A stretch of 64,000 bases of DNA, taken from the NCBI GenBank assembly GCA_964342815.1, contig CAYFHS010000003.1:1-64000 (forward strand), given 5' to 3'. The position numbers and the translations under genes were made by a program. Each line of letters opens with the position of its first letter. The first letter of the stretch is position 1. This document shows, one piece after another, positions 33,290-59,737 of the stretch. The notes beneath the pieces are model-generated. The model saw nothing but the letters and a program-made list of their open reading frames with translations. It searched no databases and was not told where the DNA came from. This stretch comes from an uncultured archaeon (lineage in GTDB: Archaea; Thermoplasmatota; Penumbrarchaeia; JASLWR01).

Positions 33290-36200
33290 CTACAAACTCT
33301 TAATAACCGCCTTCGATTTACAGTACGGGCATACCGCCACCGCCGGGGTTTTGGCGATCTTTGCCACATAGCTTTTAGAGCATTTCGGGCAGGTAAGTTT
33401 TACCTTCTTGGGTTTCGGGGCCTCCTCCGCTGCCGGCTCGGGAGCTGGTTCTTCCGGGGCCTCCGGCGCTATCTCTTCCGCGTCCTCGAGACCCTCCTTC
33501 AGCTCGGTGGCCATCTTGATGGCCTTTTCGAACTGACCCTTCTTGTACAGTTTCGTCGCATCTGATAGAAGTCCCTGAGCCGTCTTCACGATCCCTGGAT
33601 CGATCTTGTCCTTTCTGTCGTTGAAGGTAAACACCGCGTCCTCGAGAACCATCTTCGCTATGGACATGCGCCGCACGTTGATCTTCTTCTTCATTTTCTT
33701 CATCAAGCCTTCAAGAAGCGCCTTCGCATCCTCGAACTCCTCGTTTTCCACCATGCCCCCCACCTTCTGAAGCTCTTCGAGCTCTGCAGCCACGTCCGCT
33801 GCGATTCCCTCTGCAGTTTCCCCGTATTTGATTGCTTCCTGTTGCAGCTCGTCCACCTCGTCCCGGATCTTCATCTTGGCCTTCAGATCGTCTATGGTCC
33901 CTTTGAACAGTTCGTGTTTCTCTTCCATCAGGTCGAATTCTTCGGCATGGAAATGGTCCCGGATCTCGTCCACCGCATTGACTATCATTTCTTTGTACTG
34001 ATCGCTGAACAGATCATTCGACTCCAGTTCATCCAGGAAATCCTCCAGTTCATCCAGCAGGTCCCGGAGAACATCCTTTCTCCTATGGCCCCATATGGCG
34101 CGAACGCTAACCCTCAAGCGGCTGCTTTTATCGTGGGCACTTACGTAATCTTCGTCATCCATGGCATTCAATATCTCCGAGAACAGTTCCTCCTCTTCGT
34201 TCACCTCGACTCCCTTCTCCCGCAGCCGATCCATTATCCGATCGATCTCCTTGATGTTCTCCTTGGCCTCTGGTTTTATCTTGTCCTCGAAAAGACTGCT
34301 TACGAAAGCTTCCAGCTCCTTCATGGTAGCCTCCAATTCGTCCATGGATTCATCCTCGAGCTGTTCTTTGGCAGCCGTAACCAGCTCGGTACCGGTGGAA
34401 ACATCGATATCAAGTTTAGTAATGGATGAAAGCTGCGTTTCCATGTCGTTGATCCCTATGGTGTGCTTTTCGATTGCCCACTGTTTTTCGTATTCACCCT
34501 TCATATCGTAGTACGCCTCGATCTTGCGCTCCATCTCTTCGGCGTCTCCTTCCGTGCTTGCGTTCAGTGCTTCGTCCAGAAGCGATTCCAGCTCATCGTA
34601 ATCACCAATGGCGGTCATCTTGTACTCGTTGAAATCCGCAAAGGCCAGCTCCAGCTTCGAGGTGGCCTTTTCTTTTTTCTGGATGCCTATCTTCTCCTCT
34701 ATAGCAGCTCTGAGGGGTTCTATCAGTTTCATAGCACCGAGATACCGGCCCTCCTGATTCAGCGTCTCAATGGAAATGAGGCTCATGGATTCATCCTCCA
34801 TATCCGCCCCTTCCTCCTCTGCTGCCTCGATAAGCCCGGACATCTCACGAATGTGCTGGGGAATTACCTCGATGAGCTTTACCTCGATCTGCTCTTTCAC
34901 CTGGGCGTTGAGCTTCTCCGTAAGCTCCATGGCATCTGCAAGACGCCTGCTCTCCAAATAACGCTCGGCCCGGCTTATCCCGTCTTCCATGACGCCTATG
35001 TCGATGCCCAGTTCACCGCAGTCCACCATCAGCATCTCAGTGTTCCGCAGCATTATCCGTATTTTCCCCTCATCCACACCCTCCCGCTTTTCCCGAGCCG
35101 ATCCTATTGCCCTCTTCGCAAGATCGTCCGCTATGACGTAATTTCCATCCTGGAAAGCCGAGATGGCCTTGAAAATATAGGCTTCGATCTCGAATATGTC
35201 GAATCCCATCTCTTTGGTCGACTCCAGTTCCTCTTTCGCCCTGGTGATATTGGCTTCCACTTCCCCAATGGCCCTATTTTCCCGGTTCTCATCCAGCAAG
35301 GTCTGGATCTCGCCCAGCAGTACCATGCACCCCTCGGGATTCCCTGCGGCCAGATTGTCTTTTGCCCTTCCCATCAATTCCTCGAAAGCTGACATGTCCT
35401 CTATGATTTCCCGGTTCTCTTTCACAACCTGCTCTGTTTCCGATAGAAGGCCCTGCGCCTTTTCCATTAGCAGTTCCCCCACCGTCCCGATCAGACTCTC
35501 ATGCACTTCGAGAAGCGTGGTTATGGCTCCCTCGAGGTCCCCTTCTTCCTTGCGGGTCACAGCTTCCTCGTAACCTTTTTCCTCCTCGCTTACCTCGATT
35601 CCGTTCTCCTTTCCGCGAGCGATGAGATCCCCCGCCTCTTTTACCAGAGACCGGAACTCGTCTTCCAGCTTGATCTTTGCCATCAGCCCCTCGAGTATCT
35701 CCCGGAGATCCCCGAGCTTATCCTCCGCCACCAGGAACTCTCCGCTGTCGAAAAGCTCATGGACCTCTGCCACCTTGCCCCTGATATCCGCCTTGTATTC
35801 CTCTGAGAGATACGGTTTGGTATCCAAAACGCCTATGAACGAGTCGAACTCCTTCAACTGTGAACCGACCCGGGTCTCCGCTCTTGATAGCTTTACTGTG
35901 CGAACCATTTCTTCCATCCGGTTAACTGTAACTACTGTCTCATTGTATTTCCCCTCGTCGAAATGAGCCTGGGCTTTTATCATGTCACCCTCCAGTTCCT
36001 CTGTGTCCATCCCCGCCTCCTCTGCCTCGGCAATGAAATCCATGGCTCTGGTCAGTCTTTCCGTTGCAAGCTCCATGAGGTCTTCCTGCTCAAGTGCAAG
36101 GATCATGGACCTTGCTTCCTCCACGTGCTCGATGCAGCTTATGAACTCCCCTTTCCCGTTCTCCTCCACAGCCTTCTCTACCAGTTCCGCAACCCCGCCG

Positions 36201-39200
36201 AGTTCAAGTGGTCCACCGCTCTTTTCCTCCATAGCCGCTCGGATCTCTTCAAGAGCTATCCGAGCATTTTCCTCAAGTGAGTTCTGCCACACTTCAGTCA
36301 GGAGACTTCTGGCCTTCTCCGCCAGTTCCATAGATTTCTCGAATTTCTTCCTCTTTAGGAGGGCTCTTGCCTCGAAAGCGAGCTTCCTGCTGTCTCGAAT
36401 ATCCAATTTTTTCTGTGAGGCCTGCCGGACGATCCGGTCCACGTCTGCAAGGACGCTTCCGATCCCGGTCTTAAAGAATTCCTGACGTTTTTGCCCCAGA
36501 CGCTCTTCCACCCTCAGCATCAACTGGATACCTTTTACGTAGTTCTCTTCTTTAAGTGCAACCAGTACCTTCCTGAACAGCGTTTCTTCCTCGGTCAGGT
36601 CCACTTCTCTTTCTTTCAGGTATTTGAAGGATATTTTCAGGCTTGTGATGTGCTGTTTCGCGATATCTTTCGCAGGTGCTTTTCCAGCATCATTTATGAT
36701 CTCCAGGACCTGGTTCCGGAGTTCTCTCGCCGGCTCGAGCTGCCCCTCGCCAATGTTCTCTTTGATACTGTTGACCAGTTCCTCGGCAACCGCCAGAACG
36801 ATACCTATCTCATTGAAGGCCATAAGCTCTTTCGCAAGCCGTTCGACCTCCTTCGGATAGGCATCAATAAGTACGTTGGAGTACTTTTCCTCGGCCGTAA
36901 AGAACTCTTCAAGGAAACTTTCAGCACTCTCGAAGTCGCTGGAGTCCGAGGCAGCCGTTGCCGATGACAACAGGTCCTTAAGCTCGGTTATATCCATATC
37001 CAATCCCGGCATCTCCAGGATCTCCTTCTCCAGAACCGTCACCTTGTCCATAGCCCGGACCAACCTGTCTCCGCCCGCTCTCCTTCGGTAAAGATGTATC
37101 TTGTTAGCCAAGGAGGTTTCAATACCTTTCACCGTGCTCATGGCCTCATAATATTTTCCCAAATCCTTCAGTCGTTCAACTCGGGCAAGGACGGATGTGT
37201 CCTCCCGGATGTCAAGATTCAGTTCACGCGCCGTATCCATGAGGGGAGAAAGTTTTACCATTTCAGCCCGGATATCACTCTTCAATCTAGCATTCAGAGA
37301 CTGTCGTACCGTACCCTGCGTTTCTTTGGCCACCTCTCGGGCCTCCCTGAACCGACCCTGGCCGAAATGCTCTTCCATTTCCCCCAGCGCTTGCCGGGCG
37401 AAGGACACTTCCAGATCCAGTTTCTCAGCTTCTTCCACCATGGCTCGTACGTTTTCTATCTCCGCCGACGCATTATTTCTGGAATACTCATTCTGGGCGG
37501 TAAGAAGGGCAGATTTCGCTTCTCCAGCATACTTTGCCGATCTTTCAAAATTGCCTTTTTCGAGATTTCTTTTTGCATTGGCAACCATGTCCTCCACGGC
37601 AACCATGTCAACCTCCAGTTCCATCTCGTCTATCATGAGTTCCTGTACGACACCGAGGGCGGCGGTGGTGAAATCCCTGTAATGATGCTGCTTGGCCGTT
37701 TGGAACATTTCCTTTGCCTGGCTTGCATGTTCCGCAGCCAACTGGAAATCCCCATTCTCAAAATGATGTTGACCCTCTGCCAGCTTGCTCTCCATCACTG
37801 CAGTGTCAAGACCCAGTTCGCCACCTTCACCCAGAAGCGTTCTGGTCTCTGCTAGCAGTTCGGACACGTCTTCCGTGAAGTGGCGGTCCCTCTGGGCAAT
37901 AAGGCTTTCATGGGCCTTCTTCGTCAGTTGGATGGCGGCTATGAAATCCTGATCCTTTATGGCGCCAACAACGTCCTTTAGCATCTCATCCTCTCGGGAA
38001 GTATCTATCCCATCTGCCTTCATCTCCCCGAAAAGTTTTTTTATTTCCACGATGTGCCGCTTGGCGAGCTCTCGGGCATCCACCGTCTTGGCATGCTTCA
38101 CATAATCTTCCAAATGCGGGATATTTTCCTCTATGGAGGCGATATCGTTTTCTTGAACCCCTTCCATTATTATGGACAGAAGTTCAAGTCCCTTCGATGC
38201 ATCCAGACCCAACTCTCCGAGTTGGATCACACTATCGCTGAGCTCTTCAATCCGGTCCTGGAAATCCTTGACCTTCATCTCTCCCAGATACTGCTCGATC
38301 ACAACATCGAATTGTCTGAGTAAAGCATCGGCAGCATCTAGATTTTTATTTCCCACTGCCTCCTGGCTCGACAGCAGCATCCCCTTCAGGTCACTCAGAT
38401 CCTGACCAAGGGTTTTTTCCAGTTCCTCGAGAGTTGAGATCTTTTCGCTGATCTTGCGGGTTGTAGCCTCTTCCTGCATATTCTCGATCTCTTCGAGTAC
38501 GGACATCTTAAGTTTTATTAGAGTCGAAACAGCCTCAGTATAGTTGCCCGCTTTTTTCAATTCCTCGATGCCAGCTAGCTGGTTCCTTTCGTTGTCGGTG
38601 TCAGCTCCCGTTTCTTGGAACTGTGCCAGAATTCCTGAAAACTCTTCATATTCCGCCTCATAACTTACCTGTAATTTCGTGTTTATCTTTTCGGTCAGTT
38701 CCGATCTGGAAGCAATGGCGAGCGCATAGCTCACCTCCAGCTCGCCCTCCTTCAGTGATTCCTGCGCCATGGCGATCTTTTCCTCGATGGGACCAAGGTC
38801 CAGGCCCATCTCCGAACTTTCACCCATCATATTCCAAACAGCAGATATTAGAGCGGAAGTATCCCTCTTCAGATATTTTTCTTCGGCTTCGGAAAGTAAT
38901 TTAGCAGCCTCTTCGGCATCGTTAAAGGCTTCTTCAAAAGAACCTTCTTCGAAGCTTGTCTGGGCATTTATCAATATTTCTTCTGCTGAACTGAGTTCCA
39001 GACCGAGCTCTCCGCACCTGGTGTGAACAATCTTCGCTGTCTCGATAGCTTTTGCGGCTCGTTCTCTCAACGAATCCCCACGGCTTCGTGAAATTTCTCC
39101 TGCAACTTCCTCTATCAGGACATAAGCTTCTCTTATCATTGAATCGTTAAAGAGTGAAGTGGCATTCGCGAACTTCTCTTCCACAACCGCAGTTGGGACT

Positions 39201-42200
39201 CCCAGAGATTTCAGATCAAACAGCATTCTCTCCGCAAGCTCCGCAGTTGCCAGGTATTTCTCGCGGAAATGTTCGTCAAATACTGCATCAAGATTCACTT
39301 TTGCCTCTTTTGCCAGGTTTGAAGCCTCTTCCAGTTTCCCCTCACTAAGCTCCGCGTGTGCGTTCCCGACAATGTCCTCCACCGCCGCGACATCCAGACC
39401 CAATTCCTTTGCCTCTGCAAGGCGGTTTGCTGTGTCCTCCAGCAGAAGGTCGGCGTTGCTCTCCAAGTGCTTCTTTCTGGAATCGGACAATCTCTTCTTG
39501 ACCTGTACGGCAGCGTGGCAGGCGGACACGAAATCCCTTGCTTTCACGGCGCCCAGTACTTCGCTGAAAATCTCACCGTTGGACTCCATCTCCACTCCCA
39601 GTCCTTTGACCTCAACGAGAAGGGTTTTGGCTTCTCCGAGATGTACCTTTGCTATTTCCTTGGCCTGGACATTTGCCGCGGATTCCTTGAAGTCGCCAAG
39701 TCGCGATATGATATCCTCCATAATGCCAAAGCGGTTTTCCGAGATGCTCGACCTTGCCTCGGAGATCATGCCAATCCCCGGGGAAATATCAAGACCCACT
39801 TCCCGGTAGCTTTCGAAGATCTCCTGAAATCCGTCCAGTTCATCCTGATATTTGCGTGCCAGCAGTATGTTGCTTTGATCCTCTCTCATATGGGAGAAAG
39901 AATCGAGATGCTCCTCGAGAGCCGCATGATCCTCGGCCGTTATCGCCTCTCTCGCCTTAATGAGATGGGCCCCAAGAGCCTCGGATTCATCCCCCGTCAT
40001 CTCCTGGAACTGTTTGAAAGCCAATTCCGCTTCTGATAGCTTTTGAGCATTCTTGAGTCCCATACCTTCCTTATGTTTGTTTGAAAGTGATATACCGACC
40101 GCTCCCACCAGCTCTACCGCCTCTCCATACCGCCCCTCTTCTCTGAGAACTGACACGGGTCCCAATCGTTCCAGTTCATCTCGGACCTCCATCCCGAATT
40201 CCATTGATCTTTGTACTATTTGGTTTACTTCATCTGTCTTCTCTGCAAGGATGTCTTCCCATCTCAGACGTATTCTCTCTCGTACAAGAGCGACTGCTCT
40301 ACCTACAATATCATGAGACTCCCCGTAATTCTCCTCCACAAGAAGATTGCGGCCGGTCTCCATCATACTGAGCACGTCGTCCAGATCGATCCCGCCCATT
40401 TCTTCGGCCTCGTGAATTAGTTTGTCCAATTCCGCGAGAGTACTGTGCGCTCGCTCTTCATAGTATGCATCGAGAGCAGCGGATACCACCTTTCGGCTTT
40501 CGAGGAGAAGCTCACAACCTGTCAGGAAGTCACTGTTCTTGATGGAAATAACTGCCTGACGGAAGGTCCCCTCCACATCTCCCGCTTCCACCCCCGATTC
40601 CTTCATATCGGTCATCAATTTCTTTGTCTCGGCAAAAAGTGTTCGAGCCATCTCTTTCGCACCCTCGCCCCTCGCCTCATCCAGCAGTTTTTCCACCACT
40701 GCCAAACCTTCGCCGGTTCGCCCCAGGTTCTCCGAAGAGATGTCATTTCTTATTCCGGCGATGAATTCTGCAGCCTCGGTCAGCTCGATACCAACTGAAG
40801 CCAGCCGTGTCATATCTTCCTCAAGCACTATGAGCCTGCTGCTGTATGAGTCGCTCATGTACTCCCTCTTGGAGGATTCCAGGTCGGCATGGAACGATTC
40901 AAGTATGGAGTTTACTGCGGTGTGATCGCTTTCTAGAAGTGCTTTTGATGCTGTTTCCAGGTGTCCATGAAGTTCTTCGTAAACCTTCCCGGTCATTTCT
41001 TCCAGGTCAGCCAGTGACCGGGCCGAAACATCGATCTTTTCGAGGTTGTCTGTGCGGTTCATGTCTTCGGTCTTTTCCAGCAGGGAACGCTTTACTTCAC
41101 CAATGATTCCAAGGGCCTCCTGGAATTTCCACCCGTCCTTAAGGGCTTCGATCTCGGATATTCTGGAGGACTCTTCATCAATATCTATGGACATGGCCCG
41201 TACCTCTTCCAACACCGGCTCCAGTAAAGTGAGTTCGGACACCACGGTCTCCCACCGTTTCTTTCCTATCCTTACCCCCAGCTCGTCAATTATGAGCATG
41301 GAGTTTTCTAGGGCTGCATCGAACAGGCCCTCGTCATATGCGGCTCTTGCCTCCGATTCGGATGGTTGAAGATCGGAAACGTCGATTTCCAGTTCAATGG
41401 CTTCGGACATGCTTGCATGGAGATCTTTGATAGCCCGAGATGACTGTTCGGTGTGATATTTCGTCTCTGCCGCATTTAGTTTTGATTTTATATTGATAAG
41501 AATACGGCAGGCATCGGTGAATCTCTCCTCAACCACGTGGGTCCGCACCTCGCGGAAAAGAGCTTTCTCCTCCTGGAGATCGACTCCATGATCGCCCAGG
41601 TATGAGAATAATTTCATAGCCTCCCCTGCGTGTTTCTTGGCGAGTTTTCTTGCAGTAACGGTCCTTCCCTCGTGAACGATGCTTTCAAGTTTCCCAAGAA
41701 TTGTTTCCGCAGCTTCAAATCTCTGGAAGTTCAGTTCCGAGCCAACATTTGCGAGGAGTTCTTCGGTTGCGGTAACATCGATGCCTGCATCACCAAGTGC
41801 GGTGACTTCGCCCGTAAGCATATCAAGGCGTTGGTAATAGGCGGAAAGAGCAGCTTTTCTTTTGCTCTCCTTTAATAACTCTTCGAATTCGTCTATTTTG
41901 CTGTCAACCGCTACGTGATCTCCCACCTCAATTGCCTCGCGGGCGGCATTGAGGGCAGCCTCCATACCAGGATGCTCCTCACTCGTCTCGCTGGTGTGTT
42001 CATCCAATTTCGCCATTGCGTCGGATAGTCTTCGAGAATTAATCTCACTCCTGCTAAGGTCTATTTTCTCCGTGATAGATTCCCTGATCTCCCGGCCCAA
42101 AGTTATTATCTCATTGTAAGCGCCGTCGTTCCTCAGCTGGTTCATACGTGCAAACCGACCCTCATGTTCGCCAACGTCCACTGAGTACTTCCCGGCCTCC

Positions 42201-48200: not shown

Positions 48201-51200
48201 TTTGCAGCAATTTTTTCCTCGATGGATTTCATGCTGTGGTCCAATAAATCGATAATGTCGTTGTATTTCTTTTGCTGCTTCAGTTCTTCCACATTCTGAA
48301 GTCCCTGGCGCTCGGGCACGACATCCACATCCAAACCAAGGGCTTCGTCCATTATTTTTGCCAAAACCTCGGCTTTCTTTCCTATGTTCTCCAGTAATTT
48401 TTCCTCAATTGAAGCTGCAAGATCTGAGTTGGCGCCCTCTGATTTTTCCAGCATATCCTCATAACTCTCCTCGTCATAATCCCGCTTCATTTCGCTCAGG
48501 ATATCCTGGAACTCATCCACATCTATCCACAGCTCGCCGGCCTGGGTCAACATCGATTTCATCAATTCCATGGATTTTGAAGCCTTTTCCCGGAAATATT
48601 CACACCTATCTTTCGCGTAGCTTGATCGTGCCTCTTCGATCAGCTTGAAAGCTTCCTCGTAATCCTCTTCTTCGTAACACTTCATGGCCTCTTCATGAAG
48701 TTCTTCCACCCTGGTCACGTCGATTTCCAATTCACGGCCTTCGTCCATGGAAGCCTCAACGTTCCCAATGATCTGTGAGGATTTTTCCCGGTAATGATCG
48801 CGTTTGGCATTCAATAAACCCGCTCTTGCTTCCAGAGTAAGTCGAATACCAGTCACATAATCTCGGTTTCTTACCGCCACCAGTACTTCCTTGAAGATCT
48901 TGTTCTCTCTTTTCACGTCCACTGCCAGTTTTTTCATTTCAGTGAAAAGTTTGTTTGTGACACCTATGACCTCTTTGGCCCGCATCTTTGCCTTTACGTC
49001 CCTTGCTTCTGTGATCTCATGTTCCAGTTCGGTCAATCCTTCCGTTACAGCGTTGAAATCACGGTCCTCTATGCTTTCCCGAACTTCACTTGATATCCCT
49101 GCGGTCTTCATGTCCACCCCGAGTTTTGAAAGGTCTTCCGCAACAGCATCCAGCTCATCGATCTTTGCTGTATATTTCCCCACCAGATAAACGGCATTGT
49201 GTTCAGTCCTTGCATCCGCGAACTCCGCCAGAATAGCATCCAGTTCGTCGTATTCAATGCCTTCAAGCGCTTTTCGGGCTTCATCCAGCATCCCCCGCAG
49301 ATCCCCATAGTCATTCCCGGTTTCTTCTTTCAGCTCATCAAGTTCGGCCGCAGCATCATCCAGCTTATCGGAATTTATTTCAGCGAGGCGCGCAGCAATC
49401 TGTTGTTCCGCCAGAACCCTGATGTCCACGATCTGCTCCAGAGCCTTTCGATATTCTCTTTCGTCCCTTAATTCATCAACTGCCGACAGCCTTGCGATTC
49501 CTTCGGTCATGTCCGCCCCCAGTCCCTTACCTTTGTTTATAAGGGAGCTCAGAGCATCTTTACCCTGCGATATAAGCTCCAGGTATCTGTTTGTTATCTT
49601 ATCCGTGAGATCCACCATAATTTTCTCAGCCATTTTCCACGATTTAAGGTATTTTCCCTGGTCGAAGAATTCGTTAGCCTCGTTAATTTCCTCTTCCAGC
49701 TCGGAAAAATCGATAGCGAGACCGGCTTCCACCTCCATTAGATTCTCCACCTCATCCATGGTCCTGGTTGCATTCTCTTTCTCGTAGGCTTTCCTACCTT
49801 CCTCGGCCTTTTCCTTTGCCGCATTCATGGAGTTGTTGGCGTTTTCCAGCTCGCCCTTTTCGGTGAAGTACTTCGATTTGTAGAACAATCCCTCGGCCTT
49901 CGATGTATCTATATCCAGTTTCTCGTTTTCAGAGATGTATTCCCAGAGCCGGTCGAGAGCCGCTTCCAGTTCTTCCCGGTGTGACTTCTCCCTGCTGAGC
50001 TCCATGGAACTCATCAGGTCTTCAGAAAGCGATTGGGCCTCATCGAATTTTCTTCCGTCAATCAGCTCCTGGATCTCGGAAATACGGGTTTCCACCATAT
50101 CCTTGTCTCTCAGGGTTTCACGATAGATCTCGAAGGTCTCGCCGGCTTTCTCAAACGAGGTAACTGCCTTTTTCTCATTCAATTCCTCGATCTTTTCCAA
50201 AAGGTAGCTCCGGGTGTCCTCCAGAAGTGCGAAGAGCTCCTGGTACTTCCCTTCGCCGAGCAGCTCACCCGCCTCATTCATGTCCTTTTCATCATCCTCA
50301 ACATCTATATCCAGCCCCCTAGCCTCTTCTAACAGTTTTTCCAGCTCGGTCATCTTTGAGCGGGCATCCTTTGTCTTTTCAATGTCCAGTTTTGTGTTAT
50401 TTTCCAGTTCTTTGAATTCATCGATCAGTTTAAGAAATTCATCGGTTTTCCTCGCTTCCAGTGCCTCTTCGGCGTCCTCAAGCACCCTTCCCATATCCTT
50501 TGCGTACAGATCTGGAAAATCATCTAATTGACGGAGGCTTTCGATAAATTCCCTGGCCTTTTTAATTGTTAAAGAATGTTCCTCGCTCTGGCGCTCCAGC
50601 CGTAATTTTTCACAAAGATCACGTACCTCTGATGAGATGCTTGTGCCCTTTATGAAGTCACCCTGCCTCATTGCCCTCCTTGCCTGTCTAAGAAGCTGCC
50701 TGCTATCTGTTACATCAATATTCAGTACCAGGGTTTCTTCGACAATCTCCTCTGCCTGACCGAAATTTTCCCATGCCAGATCTCGAATCTTCACCCGTCG
50801 TATGTCTTTCATGATATCACTAAGGCGTGCCAAACCTTCCTTCGCATCGTCCAAACGCTTTTCTGTTAACGCCTCATCCACTTCCTCCAAAATCTTCCTT
50901 GGAACCGAAACGTCCAGCCCCACTCCTTCGAACTCATCCAACTGGCTCTCAAACTCGTTTATCTCGCTAGAATACTTTTTCTGAGATAGACTCCTAACAA
51001 ATCTCTCTTTGCTGGTGTGAAAATCTTCCAGTATCTTTGTAAAACCCTTTCTATTTCCTTTGGCTAATGCTTTATCCGCTTTCTCCATGAGCGTGTTTAA
51101 GTCATCCGACTCGAGCCCCGCGGTCTTCTCAAGATTCTCCAATCCTTCACGAGCGTTATCTAGAGCCCTTTGATCATTCTTTTTCTCGATGGAGGAAATT

Positions 51201-54200
51201 GCTTCCAGTAGAACTTTGGTGGCTTCTTCGTATCTTCCTTCCTCCTTCATCTTTCTGAGGCCGGATAAGATCCTGGAATCGTTCCTTGTGTCCACCCCAA
51301 GTTTTTCGGCTCCTTTTAGAAGCGTAATCACCTTTTTTCCCTGCAATTCCATCTTCTCCTTGAAGGTGGAATCTATAAGAATAGTGAGTGCTTCTTTCGT
51401 TTTACCGGCAATGGTGGAGGCTCTATCAAATTCACCGTTTTTGTAGGCTTCTTCTGCTTGTTCCATTATGAGCTTATGTTCATCCACCTCCAGCCATAGT
51501 CCCACGGCCTTTTCCATCAACCCCGTTGTTCCTTTCAACAATACGAAAACCTCTGCTTTCCTGAATTCGTCTTTGGCTCTTGCCAGTATTACACTTATCT
51601 CTTCCTGTCTTGCCTCTTCCGCAAAACCCTCCGCTTCCGAAATCAGGCTTTCCAGGACATCTGTTGGAAGATCATTGCTTTCCGCCTCACCCTTAATGGC
51701 TCTTATTTCGTCCACGAGCACTGCTGCTGCGCTTTTATCGAGAGCCATTCTGCTCTTCATAGCGCCATCCAGGGCCATTGTGGCGTATTTTTTCCCATTT
51801 TCGTAGTCCCGTTTCTCCAGATAATAGGTTGCCTTGTAATATATCGCTTCCACCCGTGCCGTGTCACCATCCAGTTCCTGGGTCTCTTGAATGAGCTTGT
51901 CCGAACTGCGCAACAATTCCCTAATCTCCTGCTCCCACTGCTCCAATCTCGTTCCCTCGATCTCTTTGAGAATACTTTGTGACAGTTCCAAGGATTTTTC
52001 GTATTCCTCGGCATCCAGATCTTGCTGTGCTCGGTCAAGTTGTGAAGCTATCAAGCTGTGGTCTTCCAGGATATCCCTGTACTCTTCGAACCTCTCCGTA
52101 GCATCATGGAGCAATGCCCTGCATTCATCACGCTGACGGAGGTCGAGCTTGCTCAACATTGACTCGTAAACTTCTTTCAGAAGCGGGATAGTCTCATCAA
52201 GCTCATAATTGTTCAGTAATTCGTCGATATCGTCCAGAATATCGTTCTCGGCCTCGATATCTATTGATAATTCTGACGCACTTTGTGTAAGGTCATTTAC
52301 TTTTTCCATTAACACAACGATCTCGCCGGCCTTTTTCTTCTCACCTACCATTTCCTCTTCGGCATCGGTCAGTTCACTCAAAGATCTCTGGGCTTCATCA
52401 AGCTCGTTTGATTCCAGGCTGGTTTCAACCGTTTCCATTATACTTTTTAATTCATTCACTCTTTCCGGTGCAATATGGGGATGGTCCTTTATAATTTGGA
52501 ACAGGTCTTTGGCTTCCTTTAGCCTGGTTCCAACCTCTTTTGCAGTATAGCGCTTGTCCTTTTTCAACAATAATTTTCTGCTCTTTATGGCAAGTTTGCA
52601 AGCTTTCAGGTAATCATCGCCCTTAATGGCATGAACAATCTCATTGAAGAGTTCCTTGTCCGTATCCAGTTCGGTTCCCCGCTCTATCAATCTCTTGAAC
52701 AACATATTGATCTCTTTTACTATCAGTCCAGTCCTCTTTTTAACCCGTTTAGTAATAATATCTCCGTATAGCGGTTCCAGTTCCGATAATGTTTCTTCCA
52801 GATCATCGAAAAGTTCTTCCGAAAGGAGCGTTTCCGCTTTCTCAATCAGGGGGACTGCATCATTGAGGTCGATTCCGAGAGAATTGAGGGATTCCACCCC
52901 ATTTTTTAGTTTTTGGACCTTCGCCGTATAATTTTCCCTTTTATAGTCGGCATCGTAACCGCCTTTTATCCGGTAAAAATCATTGAGTATACTGCCCATT
53001 TTGTCGTAATCCCCGTCATCCAGGGCCGAAGATACCATGTCCAGAAGTCCCCCTAGATCTTCAAACTGCCTTCCTGTCGCTTTCTCGAGAGCCAACAGCT
53101 CATCCTCTGCCTTTTCGAGCAGCTTTTCATTTGCCGAAACTTCGTGGTCTTCCAACTTCTTTTCAAGAGTTCTTTTTAATTCCTTCATAATTTCTATCGC
53201 TTCATCATACTCCTTCGCATCCCTCAGCTTCTCTATCTCATACATCCCTTTCATTTCATCGGAAATGTCCATCTTCATCTCACGGGCTTTCTCAGACAGG
53301 GCTGCTAGTTCATCGTATCTGAATTGATATATTTCCATTTGTTTTTCATTTAGCATCCTGGCAAGTCCAGTCCTGGCCTCCAAGGACAGTTCCTTTGCAC
53401 CAACGTAATCCCCATCTGCAAAAAGGCTTTTAGCCTTGTCCGCTTTTTCTGGAAAATCACCAGTATCAAGCCACAATTCCGTGGCCTTGGACTGTAGTAC
53501 TTTCACATCGTCGAGTAGCTTTGAGACTATCTTCTTCCGAGCTCCAGTTCTTAAATCGACCAATCCCCTTTCCACTTCCTGGGCCAAACGATAAGCTTCG
53601 AGATTATCGCTGGTGGCGAAAGCTTCCCTGGCTTTCTCCATGGTGACTTCAAGTTCCTCCACATCGATTCCCTTTTCCTTCATCCGTTCCAGGAGGTTTC
53701 CGCTGGTTTCCATTTGATCTGTGGCCAATTTTCCTGCCCGGTCCCCCTTTGCTTCACTGATAACTGCATCCAGTTCGGCGATACTGGCATCCACCCGCTC
53801 AAAATCTTTCGCGGATATGCTCTTTCTAGCTTCGGATATGACTTCTCCCACGTCGGTGAGATCAATGTTCATTTGGGTTATTGCGTCAATTTCCGATTCC
53901 CTTTGTTCCAGGTCCCGATCGTATTTGGCGATCCGTAACTCAAGCTTTTGCTGGTCCCAGGCTTCATTGAAACGGTCCAGATTTGATTCCACTTCATCAT
54001 AATCTTCTTTTTCCAGAGCATCAAAGGCCAAGTCACGGAACTCCTGCATGTCCGGGAAGGCCATCCGGGCCTCCTTTTGAAAAAGCGTGAGTTCTCTTGA
54101 TGCCCTGCGCAGCCTCTGAGTACAGTTCCTTCTCCTCCGTATCCTCATCCCTTCATTGAGAGATTTCTTATGCTTCTTTATTGTGTTGATGGCTGCGATA

Positions 54201-55114
54201 TATCCTTCAGTCCGGATCAGCTCGTCAATGCGTGAAGCGGCCTTTCGTTCCTTATCCACTCCAACCCCCATCTCCCGGGCCTTTTCAGTAAGGGTGATGA
54301 ATTCCTGAAGTTCCGAATTTAAAAGCTCCGCGTTCTTTCGATCCCGGGCCTCTTTGAGAATCGTTTCCAAGCTTCCCGCCTTTTCCAGAAACTCCTTGAA
54401 TTCTTCACTTTCATAGTGCACCCCAAGGGCGGTGAAGCGGGTCTCGATATCATCTGTTACGAGACCAAGAACCCTTGTCTCCTCCAGGGATTTCTCTATA
54501 CTGGAGAGCTTTAAAGCGGCCTTGTTCTTTAAAAATTCTTTCTGTTTGCTGCGGACAATTTTCAATGTGGAATGACTTAATTCCAGTGCTTCTTCATATT
54601 CCTGCTTCTCAAGCTGTTTGCGTGTTTTTTCGATAATGGAGACTGTGACCGAAACGTCCATCCCCATCTCGCGATTCTCATCCACCAGTTTCTCAGTCTC
54701 ATCCAGTAGGTCACCCACCTCTGAAGAGTATCGTTCGTGTCTGATTTCATGGATCCGATCCATCACTTCGAAGGACTCGTCCAGTGAAGATTCATATTTT
54801 TTCTCACCCAACAATGACTTTGCTTCAGCAATATGTTCTTCAATGATGGCAATGTCCTCAATGATCTTTCTGTTATCCTTCAAGTATTCCTTGGCTTCAT
54901 CGAGTTTGTTTTCAGCTTTCACCATAAGCCTGGCATCTAGGTTATCCAGGGCATCGGCCCATTTTCCAAATTTTGTATTGCCCGAAGCCAAGATCTCTTG
55001 TATCTTGGTCGCGATCTGATCTCGGGTCAGCCATTGGTCATCGATCTGAATGGTCTCTTTACGCCTCTTTGGTGGAGAGCGCGATCTATTTTTTTTCTCG
55101 TTTCCATCGGTCAT
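33290..55114 (-). CDS. Giant (~7274 aa) cytoplasmic alpha-helical repeat protein with ~66-aa units in 331-aa super-repeats and a C-terminal Zn ribbon
   Basis: Uninterrupted 21.8-kb ORF, Glu/Lys/Leu/Ala-rich, with a recurring helix-[G]x[D]-helix-[G/D]x[Y/F]xxA-helix pattern. No signal peptide or TM segment seen. Ends CPKC-x16-CPYC. ATG at 55114 (MTDG); the ORF track uses a TTG at 55123. Confidence 0.9.
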   Translation of the reverse strand: MTDGNEKKNRSRSPPKRRKETIQIDDQWLTRDQIATKIQEILASGNTKFGKWADALDNLDARLMVKAENKLDEAKEYLKDNRKIIEDIAIIEEHIAEAKSLLGEKKYESSLDESFEVMDRIHEIRHERYSSEVGDLLDETEKLVDENREMGMDVSVTVSIIEKTRKQLEKQEYEEALELSHSTLKIVRSKQKEFLKNKAALKLSSIEKSLEETRVLGLVTDDIETRFTALGVHYESEEFKEFLEKAGSLETILKEARDRKNAELLNSELQEFITLTEKAREMGVGVDKERKAASRIDELIRTEGYIAAINTIKKHKKSLNEGMRIRRRRNCTQRLRRASRELTLFQKEARMAFPDMQEFRDLAFDALEKEDYDEVESNLDRFNEAWDQQKLELRIAKYDRDLEQRESEIDAITQMNIDLTDVGEVISEARKSISAKDFERVDASIAELDAVISEAKGDRAGKLATDQMETSGNLLERMKEKGIDVEELEVTMEKAREAFATSDNLEAYRLAQEVERGLVDLRTGARKKIVSKLLDDVKVLQSKATELWLDTGDFPEKADKAKSLFADGDYVGAKELSLEARTGLARMLNEKQMEIYQFRYDELAALSEKAREMKMDISDEMKGMYEIEKLRDAKEYDEAIEIMKELKRTLEKKLEDHEVSANEKLLEKAEDELLALEKATGRQFEDLGGLLDMVSSALDDGDYDKMGSILNDFYRIKGGYDADYKRENYTAKVQKLKNGVESLNSLGIDLNDAVPLIEKAETLLSEELFDDLEETLSELEPLYGDIITKRVKKRTGLIVKEINMLFKRLIERGTELDTDKELFNEIVHAIKGDDYLKACKLAIKSRKLLLKKDKRYTAKEVGTRLKEAKDLFQIIKDHPHIAPERVNELKSIMETVETSLESNELDEAQRSLSELTDAEEEMVGEKKKAGEIVVLMEKVNDLTQSASELSIDIEAENDILDDIDELLNNYELDETIPLLKEVYESMLSKLDLRQRDECRALLHDATERFEEYRDILEDHSLIASQLDRAQQDLDAEEYEKSLELSQSILKEIEGTRLEQWEQEIRELLRSSDKLIQETQELDGDTARVEAIYYKATYYLEKRDYENGKKYATMALDGAMKSRMALDKSAAAVLVDEIRAIKGEAESNDLPTDVLESLISEAEGFAEEARQEEISVILARAKDEFRKAEVFVLLKGTTGLMEKAVGLWLEVDEHKLIMEQAEEAYKNGEFDRASTIAGKTKEALTILIDSTFKEKMELQGKKVITLLKGAEKLGVDTRNDSRILSGLRKMKEEGRYEEATKVLLEAISSIEKKNDQRALDNAREGLENLEKTAGLESDDLNTLMEKADKALAKGNRKGFTKILEDFHTSKERFVRSLSQKKYSSEINEFESQLDEFEGVGLDVSVPRKILEEVDEALTEKRLDDAKEGLARLSDIMKDIRRVKIRDLAWENFGQAEEIVEETLVLNIDVTDSRQLLRQARRAMRQGDFIKGTSISSEVRDLCEKLRLERQSEEHSLTIKKAREFIESLRQLDDFPDLYAKDMGRVLEDAEEALEARKTDEFLKLIDEFKELENNTKLDIEKTKDARSKMTELEKLLEEARGLDIDVEDDEKDMNEAGELLGEGKYQELFALLEDTRSYLLEKIEELNEKKAVTSFEKAGETFEIYRETLRDKDMVETRISEIQELIDGRKFDEAQSLSEDLMSSMELSREKSHREELEAALDRLWEYISENEKLDIDTSKAEGLFYKSKYFTEKGELENANNSMNAAKEKAEEGRKAYEKENATRTMDEVENLMEVEAGLAIDFSELEEEINEANEFFDQGKYLKSWKMAEKIMVDLTDKITNRYLELISQGKDALSSLINKGKGLGADMTEGIARLSAVDELRDEREYRKALEQIVDIRVLAEQQIAARLAEINSDKLDDAAAELDELKEETGNDYGDLRGMLDEARKALEGIEYDELDAILAEFADARTEHNAVYLVGKYTAKIDELDAVAEDLSKLGVDMKTAGISSEVRESIEDRDFNAVTEGLTELEHEITEARDVKAKMRAKEVIGVTNKLFTEMKKLAVDVKRENKIFKEVLVAVRNRDYVTGIRLTLEARAGLLNAKRDHYREKSSQIIGNVEASMDEGRELEIDVTRVEELHEEAMKCYEEEDYEEAFKLIEEARSSYAKDRCEYFREKASKSMELMKSMLTQAGELWIDVDEFQDILSEMKRDYDEESYEDMLEKSEGANSDLAASIEEKLLENIGKKAEVLAKIMDEALGLDVDVVPERQGLQNVEELKQQKKYNDIIDLLDHSMKSIEEKIAAKMKEINSEKVGKVREELEALEEETDMNYDDLWEFLESAENAFNEVDYSSQDSIIQEFRKAKADHYQQYLADRYDKKAKELLRESEELKELGLTLTPAIELLETVKENVDNFDFTETEATLEKIEEQIENAKTEQAKELAKNHFIKTKKLLTELKGKELKLEEENKAFQRAIAAIKSKDFVTACRLTRQAVEMAENAREQYYKERAEEELEWSKDMVIEGVDLDLEFIHECLERAEDEYDEADYEKSIQSVDAARSDFKERRTAYWKKRAEDALEKVRDKTKEGYELELDMQDVETLIADAESYFQEGDHERVMELTREAEEKYSAQRRDHFMEKGQRSLAQLDEVLVEGNELGLDTGKIQETRGLTASLFDEGHYERAIDMAEQGRKDYHLLRQAHFKENTDAVLKKLKTMIGEASEFEVDISAVKDDLRNIRSLYDQKEFQEAQELSENSMRELRREIDGEQITRLNDEITGLEEEMDSARGIETDIREEEDGLTSVENMRAEGSYRDCIIRVGQLRSATKQKYELKIAEVNAGKLEETMESLENFSEETGGEYPDLDELAASAGKALEEKDYTVFEELLERFRTTKEDENRKYLFTKYKGEIEELEGEVPPLAELGLDLSSVEELVGTTREHMESYEFEMVIDDIASIREGLLEVRNVGAKNLAKKHFLSTKSVLGELKELDLVVEEFDILFKKAIASIKGRDFVSACQLFLEAGESMAEARKEYYRGSTEETVNNIKKFMGEAAELELNVTAFTELDERVRESYEDGEFEEAHGLALECSLGLQAAINTELLVIIEGKADKFESIAAEALKIDANIEAEKVSLAEADRLREKERYREIISLLENAISSAIVKIEERTFEMNEERFEGAKEALEELEFETGVNYPDLHSQLDEAKEMLVEKNYTDLVPSLMEFDKAREMLYISHLMKVHNERIGGIEEELGAIRDVGIELADTDELSGTARVAINEERFEDAKAVMDELDGIIDEAKSVKAKQIAKSNFTETNKLLTKLKRLGIDLTSEEAVFREILGAIKTRDFLKSIQLTRSVREKLDGVKKDHSRNKAVAAIQSLEGMLGDAGKRITDVISIEKIHSKAMEHFEEEDFDNALLMVGQAKQEYDEKRKEFQQEMLTGSMDRLQNLISEAGELDMDVSVPERNLAQLKSSFDSEKFDEAEELAGDTISTLESTMEKRYLTVIEERTGELARVMEEGVGLGVDMKAERERLSATMDLRTEKRYPEILIVLKECYDSVANSVGDRRRELNTEKLREIMDSLESFKEETGGAYQDLDSLLDSAGAALNREDYEAMEGFIDEFLEAKEGHNNRHMAEGYAARLEEMEKEVGELENIGLSLENVHDLLRIAKENAETFVFKGIETKLSDIETVIDRASSVEAKKLAKKHFIRAKELIAELKETGVDLEEENRLFREAITDIKAGEFVKGAGLTQRSEKLLVEKRKNYYVEATESELEKVDYFIIEAREVDLSLDEILESSKEAREFLEEKLYPQAFTLSRATAAALREMLNVRLKEILDDERAQMESGLEAARKLDLVLDNVTDALAMAGECQQAGDLRKAIDLLRNERPALDEAMRGRTRELTEQAVITAKENLGAFMEITEKDYPDLEGFIENATMSLEDNDYEGAKEHLGMFDEALAGYEGDRRADNYRVDLRSREPEIAAITEIGIELTDIFDLVSQASQLISSHDFEVLEETLVLIDQGIEHARKVTAKDAARDRIATAKGLFDKLTELDLELDEEKKHFGEVLSKIKEGDFVKACKMADGATEMLRKKETEYQRSRAEEALAAAENSLEEIRKLDVETAAVEKSLGEARVFYEWKDYPKSEETARTTVERAEYLKEEYRKKSVFVMIEGVEEALKEGAELGIDTASMAVEIADAYGLVNEGNLEEAERMARETNDLFLSTKKTRIEEITTTSFETARKLMEKSVELGLDTVSIETMLEYANIHFEDGEYESAQELIDQARETLVEMIGGKELEGADSEIAAIESLMREAGKYSVDVGEHEGRFARMNQLRNDGAYNEIITLGREIRESITEKIDLSRSEINSRRLSDAMAKLDEHTSETSEEHPGMEAALNAAREAIEVGDHVAVDSKIDEFEELLKESKRKAALSAYYQRLDMLTGEVTALGDAGIDVTATEELLANVGSELNFQRFEAAETILGKLESIVHEGRTVTARKLAKKHAGEAMKLFSYLGDHGVDLQEEKALFREVRTHVVEERFTDACRILINIKSKLNAAETKYHTEQSSRAIKDLHASMSEAIELEIDVSDLQPSESEARAAYDEGLFDAALENSMLIIDELGVRIGKKRWETVVSELTLLEPVLEEVRAMSIDIDEESSRISEIEALKDGWKFQEALGIIGEVKRSLLEKTEDMNRTDNLEKIDVSARSLADLEEMTGKVYEELHGHLETASKALLESDHTAVNSILESFHADLESSKREYMSDSYSSRLIVLEEDMTRLASVGIELTEAAEFIAGIRNDISSENLGRTGEGLAVVEKLLDEARGEGAKEMARTLFAETKKLMTDMKESGVEAGDVEGTFRQAVISIKNSDFLTGCELLLESRKVVSAALDAYYEERAHSTLAELDKLIHEAEEMGGIDLDDVLSMMETGRNLLVEENYGESHDIVGRAVALVRERIRLRWEDILAEKTDEVNQIVQRSMEFGMEVRDELERLGPVSVLREEGRYGEAVELVGAVGISLSNKHKEGMGLKNAQKLSEAELAFKQFQEMTGDESEALGAHLIKAREAITAEDHAALEEHLDSFSHMREDQSNILLARKYQDELDGFQEIFESYREVGLDISPGIGMISEARSSISENRFGIMEDIISRLGDFKESAANVQAKEIAKVHLGEAKTLLVEVKGLGVEMESNGEIFSEVLGAVKARDFVSACHAAVQVKKRLSDSRKKHLESNADLLLEDTANRLAEAKELGLDVAAVEDIVGNAHAELSEGKLEEASNLAKEAKVNLDAVFDEHFREKYLATAELAERMLFDLKSLGVPTAVVEEKFANATSLFNDSMIREAYVLIEEVAGEISRSRGDSLRERAAKAIETAKIVHTRCGELGLELSSAEEILINAQTSFEEGSFEEAFNDAEEAAKLLSEAEEKYLKRDTSALISAVWNMMGESSEMGLDLGPIEEKIAMAQESLKEGELEVSYALAIASRSELTEKINTKLQVSYEAEYEEFSGILAQFQETGADTDNERNQLAGIEELKKAGNYTEAVSTLIKLKMSVLEEIENMQEEATTRKISEKISTLEELEKTLGQDLSDLKGMLLSSQEAVGNKNLDAADALLRQFDVVIEQYLGEMKVKDFQDRIEELSDSVIQLGELGLDASKGLELLSIIMEGVQENDIASIEENIPHLEDYVKHAKTVDARELAKRHIVEIKKLFGEMKADGIDTSREDEMLKDVVGAIKDQDFIAAIQLTKKAHESLIAQRDRHFTEDVSELLAETRTLLGEGGELGLDTAVMESKLAEGQHHFENGDFQLAAEHASQAKEMFQTAKQHHYRDFTTAALGVVQELMIDEMELEVDMVAVEDMVANAKRNLEKGNFERSAKYAGEAKSALLTAQNEYSRNNASAEIENVRAMVEEAEKLDLEVSFARQALGEMEEHFGQGRFREAREVAKETQGTVRQSLNARLKSDIRAEMVKLSPLMDTARELNLDIREDTSVLARVERLKDLGKYYEAMSTVKGIETSLANKIHLYRRRAGGDRLVRAMDKVTVLEKEILEMPGLDMDITELKDLLSSATAASDSSDFESAESFLEEFFTAEEKYSNVLIDAYPKEVERLAKELMAFNEIGIVLAVAEELVNSIKENIGEGQLEPARELRNQVLEIINDAGKAPAKDIAKQHITSLKISFKYLKEREVDLTEEETLFRKVLVALKEENYVKGIQLMLRVEERLGQKRQEFFKTGIGSVLADVDRIVRQASQKKLDIRDSRKLAFEARALLKRKKFEKSMELAEKARSLLTEVWQNSLEENARIALEEIRAAMEEKSGGPLELGGVAELVEKAVEENGKGEFISCIEHVEEARSMILALEQEDLMELATERLTRAMDFIAEAEEAGMDTEELEGDMIKAQAHFDEGKYNETVVTVNRMEEMVRTVKLSRAETRVGSQLKEFDSFIGVLDTKPYLSEEYKADIRGKVAEVHELFDSGEFLVAEDKLGDLREILEGLMAKIKLEDEFRSLVKEAGDLIARGKENGIEVSEEEKGYEEAVTRKEEGDLEGAITTLLEVHESLIGTVGELLMEKAQGLLSETEQVVKENREIIEDMSAFEELMGRAKDNLAAGNPEGCMVLLGEIQTLLDENRENRAIGEVEANITRAKEELESTKEMGFDIFEIEAYIFKAISAFQDGNYVIADDLAKRAIGSAREKREGVDEGKIRIMLRNTEMLMVDCGELGIDIGVMEDGISRAERYLESRRLADAMELTEKLNAQVKEQIEVKLIEVIPQHIREMSGLIEAAEEEGADMEDESMSLISIETLNQEGRYLGAMKLIEPLRAAIEEKIGIQKKEKATSKLELAFADFNEYKMTAIGDYDELESLLDEALNASTEGDAEEMERKIEAYYDMKGEYEKQWAIEKHTIGINDMETQLSSITKLDIDVSTGTELVTAAKEQLEDESMDELEATMKELEAFVSSLFEDKIKPEAKENIKEIDRIMDRLREKGVEVNEEEELFSEILNAMDDEDYVSAHDKSSRLRVSVRAIWGHRRKDVLRDLLDELEDFLDELESNDLFSDQYKEMIVNAVDEIRDHFHAEEFDLMEEKHELFKGTIDDLKAKMKIRDEVDELQQEAIKYGETAEGIAADVAAELEELQKVGGMVENEEFEDAKALLEGLMKKMKKKINVRRMSIAKMVLEDAVFTFNDRKDKIDPGIVKTAQGLLSDATKLYKKGQFEKAIKMATELKEGLEDAEEIAPEAPEEPAPEPAAEEAPKPKKVKLTCPKCSKSYVAKIAKTPAVAVCPYCKSKAVIKSL

Positions 55115-55503
55115 GGTCAACACTTCGGTCTGTTGGGTGACTTTGAGAGTTATGGGTGGGATTATTATGATGGGTCAGTCACTATTGAATTATTGGCGAG
55201 AAGCTGGAATCCTCATAGTAGTTATAATCTCCTAGAGATTAGCCTACTATCGGGTAATTCTGCTCTATTACCAATATAATATAATAATATGCGGTAGATT
55301 ATTCCAAGATAGATAACAATTTATAACAAAAATCTCTCGAATATATTTTAAATTAAAATATAATTGACTGGATTATACCGGCGGAAACACAGCATAAATT
55401 ATAAATATGCCAGATTTGTTAATTTGGATCAATTTTTTCCATGGCAAAAGCGACTTTCAGAACCTTAATATAAAGAATTCCACAAAGATCAATCGGTGAA
55501 ATC

Positions 55504-59592: not shown

Positions 59593-59737
59593 ACTGAGAA
59601 GGTTGGATAAACACCTGGATCGAAGCCGTTCACACTGCACTGGCCGCTCTGAAGAACTTTTATGCAATAATATTAAATATTTGGTATTCATCTCTATTAG
59701 TACCATTAATAATATAAATTCTATTAGGAAGGGATTC

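Follow-up and report, generated by a model that had tools for sequence, protein, structure and literature searches.

The window analysed here, a stretch of 64,000 nucleotides from contig CAYFHS010000003.1 of an uncultured Thermoplasmatota archaeon, carries on its minus strand one gene for a protein of 7,274 amino acids (aa), hereafter the giant protein. The open reading frame (ORF) at 33290..55123 on the minus strand is open over 7,277 codons when counted from a GTG; the ATG at 55114, three codons inside the frame, coincides with the start of the orthologues (MTDGNEKK / MTNGYEKK; P0003, P0005). Translation revealed no stop and no frameshift over 21.8 kb. The composition of the product (E 15.8%, L 11.0%, A 9.4%, K 8.1%, D 7.1%, P 0.8%, C 0.3%) is helical and acidic, with a net charge of -646 and a mass of ~830 kDa by arithmetic. 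The gene and its parts were localized as follows; confidence in the models is given as the predicted local distance difference test (pLDDT) score.

33290..55114, minus strand: complete coding sequence (7,274 aa) of the giant protein, with the ATG at 55114 and the stop codon at 33290-33292
55115..55503, no strand assigned: AT-rich intergenic region between the giant gene and a divergent tRNA-intron endonuclease gene, a likely promoter
55049..55114, minus strand: N-terminal basic tail of ~22 residues, MTDGNEKKNRSRSPPKRRKE, before the first helical unit (translation)
33482..55048, minus strand: repeat array, ~109 units of 66 aa (type A, 67 aa) in ~15 super-repeats (unit model, register, typing and C-terminal model)
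45554..46558, minus strand: five-unit super-repeat, ORF residues 2856-3190, modelled by AlphaFold2 on alignment A1 (pLDDT 92.1)
44759..45154, minus strand: units 50-51, the best-conserved internal units, ~46-47% along the chain (68% and 56% identity to P0005)
33413..33481, minus strand: Pro/Glu/Ala-rich flexible linker from the rod to the zinc ribbon (pLDDT ~40, devoid of secondary structure)
33293..33412, minus strand: C-terminal lysine-rich C4 zinc ribbon (KKVKL-CPxC ... PAxAxCPYC ... IK; alignment and model)

The periodicity of the protein was established by self-BLAST in 150-residue windows, which returned 3,213 off-diagonal offsets at a median identity of 23.5%. The best period was 66.15 aa; 45% of the offsets fell within 3 aa of a multiple of it, against 10.6% by chance, and the largest single peak lay at 330. 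Both the ~66-aa unit and the 331-aa super-repeat claimed in the initial annotation of this DNA are confirmed. A generic hidden Markov model (HMM) of the unit at first found 21-48 units, and 13 iterations were needed to arrive at a self-trained model that placed 97 units at a spacing of 66 or 67 aa; filling gaps of two or three units brought the number to 108. The HMM register together with the C-terminal model gives ~108-109 units, in line with the 105-110 expected. When the sequence was written in rows of 66, a fixed register became visible, in which a G-h-D-h loop leads into a short helix and a 'g-d-Y/F-x-x-A' turn into a long one. The mean unit-versus-unit BLOSUM score was +10.8, compared with -24 +/- 12 for shuffled units, and was at its maximum at lag 5.

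Hierarchical clustering failed to part the unit types, and seeded iterative typing was used to resolve them. Five types recur in the order A-B-C(1-4)-D-E, which bears out the proposed fixed order of five types with extra units in varying number; the C units per super-repeat in the core number 2, 4, 1, 2, 1, 3, 1, 1, 4 and 3. Because the type-A unit is one residue longer than the others, the super-repeat measures 331 residues (4 x 66 + 67). The super-repeat had originally been tracked by a marker motif, and all 15 marker coordinates map to the loop that opens independently typed A units. Their spacings are close to integers (5.0, 9.85, 9.06, 5.98, 7.96, 5.0, 6.0, 5.0, 6.99, 5.0, 5.02, 7.99, 7.08 and 12.04 units), with a minimum of 5. 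The motif itself fared less well, the strict form TGxx[YF]x[DE]L being present at 6 of the 15 positions and degenerate versions at the other nine.

To describe the fold, one super-repeat was modelled by AlphaFold2 on alignment A1, which comprises 19 internal and orthologous copies. The model reached a mean pLDDT of 92.1; in it, helices of 15 and 43 residues alternate strictly, with a 3-residue turn after the short one and a 5-residue loop after the long one. A model of the C-terminal 450 residues, built on alignment A2, scored 85.4, and the 15 + 43 helix pattern runs on in it to ORF residue ~7214. In each predicted bundle, a short helix packs against the second half of the long helix before it and the first half of the one after it. 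Neighbouring bundles would hence share a continuous helix, which amounts to spectrin-type connectivity; in spectrins and EzrA, too, bundles are joined by continuous helices (PMC4243239). With good confidence, the models thus depict serial three-helix bundles with shared helices. The initial annotation had likewise proposed a chain of small three-helix bundles, and the nearest solved structures are such bundles together with BB0323, EzrA and EbhA. Neither a two-stranded coiled coil nor disorder was predicted in the AlphaFold2 model of the super-repeat. Since the 43-residue helix is ~6.4 nm long and spans two bundles, the rise per unit would be ~3.2-3.5 nm, a figure derived from helix lengths and not from coordinates, and 109 units would have a contour length of ~0.35 micrometre if the chain is straight.

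Two other architectures were considered and rejected. A two-stranded coiled-coil filament, like SMC arms or CCRP-type proteins, is incompatible with the G-h-D-h loop and the turn, which break the helices every 66 residues. For a tetratricopeptide repeat (TPR) there was a sub-threshold ANAPC3 match only (21 bits against a cut-off of 27.2), the helices of 15 and 43 residues and the 66-aa period do not fit it, and the 'gdYxxA' turn only resembles the turn of a TPR solenoid of 34-residue units. Pfam and NCBIfam searches with both halves of the protein returned nothing beyond sub-threshold noise (Aca2_YdiL, Mga, ANAPC3, Cdc6_lid, DUF4379, EccE and SAXB), and a sequence-profile search of the PDB gave nothing meaningful, its best match being to 20 residues of a PPR protein (E 9e-4).

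Foldseek of the super-repeat model against the PDB found nothing at E <= 1e-3. With an exhaustive structural aligner, windows of the AlphaFold2 model (~46-111, 112-177, 175-247 and 246-335) were superposed on solved three-helix bundles at Z 9-10.5 and a root-mean-square deviation (rmsd) of 1.3-2.6 A. Longer stretches matched BB0323 (Z 11.4, 147 residues) and EbhA (Z 7.9, 227 residues), and EzrA was matched twice, over 131 residues (Z 10.4, rmsd 13.2 A) and over 294 residues (Z 8.0, rmsd 22.5 A), scores that lie in the chance-like range for helical proteins. Judged from the model, these matches indicate the fold class only and not homology. In the ESM Atlas, unnamed Thermoplasmatota clusters rank first and the first named cluster is EzrA (score 0.80), which we treat as a lead only.

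The rank of EzrA, both in the ESM Atlas and among the best multi-unit fold matches, raises the question of an EzrA-like cell-division scaffold that binds FtsZ. We regard this as quite improbable. Three FtsZ/tubulin-family genes of the source genome (G000) stand apart from the giant gene and its paralogues:

C10:33316-33795, FtsZ/tubulin-family gene
C38:38989-39468, FtsZ/tubulin-family gene
C2:332957-333448, FtsZ/tubulin-family gene

Moreover, the protein shows no Pfam EzrA match, no N-terminal membrane anchor and no C-terminal four-helix bundle, and it is 13 times the length of EzrA.

Five orthologues from other assemblies were available for comparison, all of them collinear with the giant protein:

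P0003 (= G001): 7,274 aa, 71-73% identity, same genus
P0004: 7,400 aa, 70% identity, N-terminally cut
P0005: 7,274 aa, 40% identity
P0006: 7,686 aa, 32% identity
G003: ~7,018 aa, 33-37% identity

Against P0005, BLAST produced one high-scoring segment pair of 7,282 columns with 33 gap positions, and a MAFFT alignment contained indels of 1-4 residues only between residues 20 and 7219. At 72% protein identity, synonymous sites are already saturated. The unit-type string is the same in the source genome, P0003 and P0005, with 108 units each. P0004 carries a six-unit tandem duplication (395 aa), P0006 has 114 units and G003 has 104, and the D-E pair at units 57-58 of the source genome is missing from the latter two. 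The numbers of C units per super-repeat are conserved in orthologues down to 32-40% identity. Because the unit strings are collinear across orthologues, we take the array to be ancient, each unit having its own orthologue, and change to proceed by whole units. ORF residues ~1203-1800 are a hot spot of block duplication, with six units added in P0004 and ~ten in P0006; the position of the extra units in P0006 differs between MAFFT and BLAST, and the unit-type strings were relied on here.

The same comparison bears on the suspicion that the frame is an assembly artefact or a decaying, non-functional repeat ORF. Its source is a metagenome-assembled genome (MAG), 88.9% complete and in 116 contigs, which is the kind of record that invites such doubt. 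However, collinear, intact orthologues occur in independent assemblies at 72%, 70%, 40% and ~32% identity, the 21.8-kb frame is undisturbed, and near-identical DNA repeats that could mislead an assembler are absent: no direct repeat in the gene exceeds ~33-41 nt, and identity to the reference copy is 63-82% among the copies. On these grounds mis-assembly was ruled out, and we put the chance of an artefact or of decay close to nil. The identical protein is also on record from five contigs.

To follow the distribution of the 7,000-residue form, 37 genomes of the class were searched with the last 350 residues, which are specific to the orthologues. The form was confined to a single family (f1), in 4/4 genomes including the source genome. 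In one of these four, G002, which belongs to another genus of the family, the giant is replaced by two tandem genes:

L020:2469-12314 and L021:339-8573 (G002:C18:10469-29073), tandem genes of 3,282 and 2,745 codons

Both end in the linker and CPxC...CPxC ribbon of the giant protein. Scans of metagenome contigs with the single protein and then with alignment A2 returned no relative, and a scan of genome contigs returned only a same-genus assembly, ETNP2_MAG_1, which originates from the oxygen-minimum zone of the Eastern Tropical North Pacific.

The giant gene sits among archaeal housekeeping genes (SMC, PCNA, tRNA-intron endonuclease, TrkA/TrkH and beta-carbonic anhydrase). The tRNA-intron endonuclease was assigned by Pfam, and the promoter in the intergenic region is a candidate from sequence. 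Gene order is completely syntenic within the genus and absent from the other genus; guilt by association is therefore uninformative on the role of the giant protein. The homologue search that had been proposed at the outset thus yielded the variation in unit number (104-114), but the conserved neighbours only within the genus. Along the gene, the G+C content climbs steadily from ~0.43-0.45 at the 5' end to 0.52 at the 3' end, and the GC and AT skews, read on the plus strand, are strongly negative throughout.

Both ends of the giant protein are basic, the N-terminus through its KKNRSRSPPKRRKE tail and the C-terminus through the lysine-rich ribbon. The basic R/K-R-E-T-I entry to the first unit is kept in the orthologues, and the linker before the ribbon differs in length among them. 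In all five sequences compared, the ribbon keeps its four Cys, the flanking Pro and several neighbouring residues unchanged, and AlphaFold2 folds the segment into a mini-domain of four short strands with CPxC...CPxC; beyond it, the C-terminal model has no special end domain. In Pfam, the ribbon matched generic zinc-ribbon families below threshold only (best DUF4379, 23.9 bits against a cut-off of 24.5), and in the PDB the matches were generic and not significant, the nearest weak ones including RNA polymerase subunit P (E 0.12).

These ends could suggest a tether of the nucleoid or the membrane, in which tail and ribbon bind DNA, RNA or acidic lipids and the rod either spaces such sites or forms a spectrin-like sub-membrane skeleton. 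Several points agree with this proposal: both ends are basic on a rod of strongly negative net charge, the ribbon and its surroundings are the most invariant part outside the repeats, and the nearest PDB matches, although weak and not significant, include RNA polymerase subunit P. Zinc ribbons commonly bind nucleic acids, and some lineages of the Thermoplasmatota lack a wall and would profit from an internal skeleton. Nevertheless, the ribbon is above threshold for no specific DNA- or lipid-binding family, an amphipathic or hydrophobic anchor is absent, and the SMC gene in the window lies ~24 kb off and is unlinked in the other genus. We consider such a tether decidedly unlikely.

With regard to location, no transmembrane (TM)-like segment was found in the giant protein, the maximum 19-residue Kyte-Doolittle mean being 1.42 and no window exceeding 1.6, and no signal peptide was seen, the N-terminus being basic and polar. 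Cys4 zinc ribbons typically occur in the reducing cytoplasm. Since the chain lacks a hydrophobic segment and ends in such a ribbon, the protein is placed in the cytoplasm, as the initial annotation had it. A secreted or surface fibre, like an Ebh-type adhesin and exported by an unrecognised route, could be argued from the EbhA fold match (Z 7.9) and from the other giant surface proteins encoded in the window. Apart from the ribbon, the lack of a signal peptide, TM segment or anchor speaks against a fibre, as does the wider family, in which a TM-like segment occurs in 3/153 inspected sequences only, and we judge it very improbable.

The reading that we favour, with moderate confidence, is that of a cytoplasmic, semi-rigid, acidic rod that has a fixed number of units and is anchored by way of its basic ends. 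The gene is real and looks expressed; it belongs to an uncultured marine Thermoplasmatota archaeon and has a cytoplasmic product in which ~109 bundles would follow one another uninterrupted from the basic N-terminal tail to the flexible linker and the lysine-rich C4 zinc ribbon. The strongly acidic array would act as a structural rod or spacer, its unit count probably under selection, and the two basic ends, the zinc ribbon above all, would fasten it to a partner. The simplest account of the A-B-C(n)-D-E grammar may be that the array grew as blocks of five to six units were duplicated and was later frozen; whole blocks of 2, 6 or ~10 units are gained or lost in relatives, which fits the super-repeat as the duplication module.

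A number of findings weigh against a rod of this kind. Z scores of 8-11 are within reach of helical repeats by common arrangement alone, and an rmsd of 22.5 A over the 294-residue EzrA alignment means that the shape of the giant protein differs from that of EzrA. As EzrA shows, chains of this type may take on an arc-like bend (PMC4243239). Nor is the unit count strictly constant, the orthologues having from 104 to 114 units, and the gene stands alone, with a neighbourhood that is kept only within the genus, so that context supports no role. Finally, a conserved basic stripe in the type-B units hints at periodic sites, which a plain spacer would not need.

The stripe deserves closer description. 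Type-B units carry the motif V-x-A-K-x-L-A-K-x-h-F ... K-x-L ... L-K and, together with the C unit that follows, are the least acidic of the chain (net -4 and -3, respectively, compared with -7 to -9 for types A and D). Their Lys/Arg residues at unit positions 43, 47, 54 and 61 are kept in P0005 in 36/38 cases, compared with 561/1,022 (55%) for all Lys/Arg of the protein; the consensus basic positions of the other unit types are likewise well kept. Identity to P0005 is spread fairly evenly over the units (0.20-0.68 each) and differs little by type (A 0.36, B 0.38, C 0.43, D 0.37 and E 0.41). The best-conserved parts are units 50-51 and the last ten or so units, and within the unit the conserved positions follow the 3-4-residue rhythm typical of helix cores.

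A molecular ruler or periodic docking scaffold could be built on these features: a spectrin-like, cell-scale strut of ~0.35 micrometre in which the ~15 super-repeats each offer a partner site, the type-B stripes being the docking sites, and the exact number of bundles sets a cellular dimension. It would account for the occurrence of exactly 108 units in three lineages, for the reduced acidity of type B and the next C unit, for the retention of the stripe and for the conservation of the irregular C-unit pattern itself. Yet the markers are spaced irregularly, at 5 to 12 units, which is unlike a regular partner lattice; the per-unit identity singles out no type and looks core-like; and the basic positions of the other types are also well kept, so the stripe may consist of structural salt bridges. 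Other orthologues differ in unit count, relatives gain and lose whole blocks, and no partner gene is linked in the neighbourhood. We consider a ruler or docking strut unlikely, while keeping it in view. Accordingly, of the interpretation first offered for this protein, the structural part stood, whereas the titin/nebulin-type ruler with periodic binding sites is not borne out by the spacing of 5 to 12 units, although the conserved irregular pattern and the stripe speak in its favour.

The rod that we favour can be set beside several known systems. Spectrin-repeat proteins (spectrin, alpha-actinin, dystrophin and nesprins; PF00435) have in common with the predicted structure the head-to-tail antiparallel three-helix bundles, the shared helix and the long cytoplasmic rod that these produce. 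They differ in that their repeat is ~106 aa long with three helices of similar length, compared with 66-67 aa and helices of 15 and 43 residues, and in that they carry CH, EF-hand, PH or SH3 end domains where the giant protein has a zinc ribbon only; the latter is also archaeal and strings ~109 units in one chain. PF00435 had no match in either half at E <= 0.1. EzrA (PDB 4uxv and 4uy3; PF06160) is likewise a prokaryotic, cytoplasmic chain of triple-helical bundles with continuous helices. It has five ~100-aa repeats, an N-terminal membrane helix and a C-terminal four-helix bundle and forms a 12-nm semicircle (PMC4243239); neither its membrane helix, its ~100-aa repeats nor its four-helix bundle was found in the giant protein, PF06160 gave no match, and the PDB profile search contained no EzrA chain at E <= 1.

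EbhA of Staphylococcus aureus (PDB 2dgj) and the N-terminal domain of BB0323 of Borrelia (PDB 6rjw) are also serial helical-bundle rods. Ebh, however, is a secreted, membrane-anchored surface protein of 126-residue FIVAR-GA modules and BB0323 is a periplasmic lipoprotein; the Pfam/NCBIfam and PDB profile searches showed no sequence relationship to either. Titin and nebulin resemble the giant protein as proteins of filament length with a super-repeat of several unit types in fixed order. Their super-repeats are regular and match the period of a partner filament, whereas those described here vary from 5 to 12 units. Titin is made of Ig/Fn3 domains and nebulin of single helices, folds unlike that of the giant protein.

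The closest company is found within the archaea. Among 1.84 billion proteins, the A1 profile detected 1,058 representative clusters at E <= 1e-3, nearly all of them archaeal; at E <= 1e-30 the number is 194. Lengths bunch at 1.45-1.55, 2.2-2.4 and 3.0-3.2 thousand residues, and only the orthologues of the giant exceed 7,000. A sample of 153 sequences (150 listed matches and three found earlier) was inspected, of which 74 contained a CxxC...CxxC pair, within the last 120 residues in 55 and within the first 120 in 16. The giant protein is thus the largest member of a big archaeal family that has no name in curated libraries, and a search of the literature on archaeal giant, spectrin-like and Prok-RING proteins found no paper on it.

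The source genome itself holds paralogues on contigs C35 (3,835 and 1,373 aa, with a Prok-RING_1-like end), C12, C14 and C1 (1,480, 645 and 1,707 aa, with a zinc-ribbon end). The genes on C35 and C1, as well as P0010 and P0012, show the 66-aa spacing and the D-E-A-B-C order of the giant protein; the five-type grammar therefore predates those duplications. A different layout is seen in P0007 (4,348 aa; E 2e-25 to the giant protein), which combines a CARDB-like domain with Prok-RING_1 and in which the unit HMM found 48 units of a uniform 62-64 aa that lack the five-type grammar; a Prok-RING_1 match, below the cut-off, is present also in the second gene of the C35 pair. This class of unnamed Thermoplasmatota giants with helical repeats and zinc fingers has a homologous unit, with the G-h-D-h loop and the 'gdY/FxxA' turn, and is likewise cytoplasmic and often ends in a zinc finger. 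The giant protein differs from it in length, at 7.0-7.7 thousand aa being the longest class where the modes lie near 1.5, 2.4 and 3.1 thousand, and in ending in a single C4 ribbon with no RING-like finger, Ig/CARDB-like or other beta domain.

Serial spectrin-like repeats have been described as unique to spectrins and EzrA (PMC4243239); a large family in archaea, with its shorter unit, would broaden this picture. Archaeal proteins of more than 5,000 residues are rare, and those discussed in one survey are halomucins and polyketide synthase/nonribosomal peptide synthetase (PKS/NRPS) enzymes (PMC11573180). The giant protein is a purely structural-looking cytoplasmic chain, the unit layout of which stayed fixed while its sequence drifted to 40% identity. 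Should the rod be a skeleton or ruler, it would provide a concrete handle on the interior organisation of uncultured planktonic archaea, and a true strut or ruler would be a prokaryotic counterpart of the titin/nebulin-type rulers, made from a new 66-residue repeat. Protein designers, too, may be drawn to this regular module of 66 residues, for which the prediction is of high confidence.

Other genes of the window encode repetitive or zinc-finger proteins. A second giant ORF (13345-22743, minus strand; 3,132 aa) has an N-terminal membrane helix, a large Asn/Thr/Gly-rich region of surface type with no Pfam match, and a C-terminal Cys-rich, RING-like finger; such zinc-finger tails seem to recur on the giant proteins of the source organism. 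The 474-aa product of 11791-13215 on the plus strand is helical in its N-terminal part and then carries ~seven zinc-ribbon repeats in tandem (CPDC...CDAC), which are separated by Pro/Ala/Glu/Lys-rich linkers and matched Pfam zinc fingers weakly only. The product of 59603-63928 (plus strand; 1,441 aa, no Pfam match) begins with a hydrophobic segment, continues with many ~40-aa repeats ('DVWLIKTD.NG..W', beta-propeller-like) and closes with a Pro-rich basic tail. Near the start of the window, 87-1175 on the minus strand encodes a 362-aa membrane protein with Gln/Pro-rich short tandem repeats (PGQQPMM...) on both flanks.

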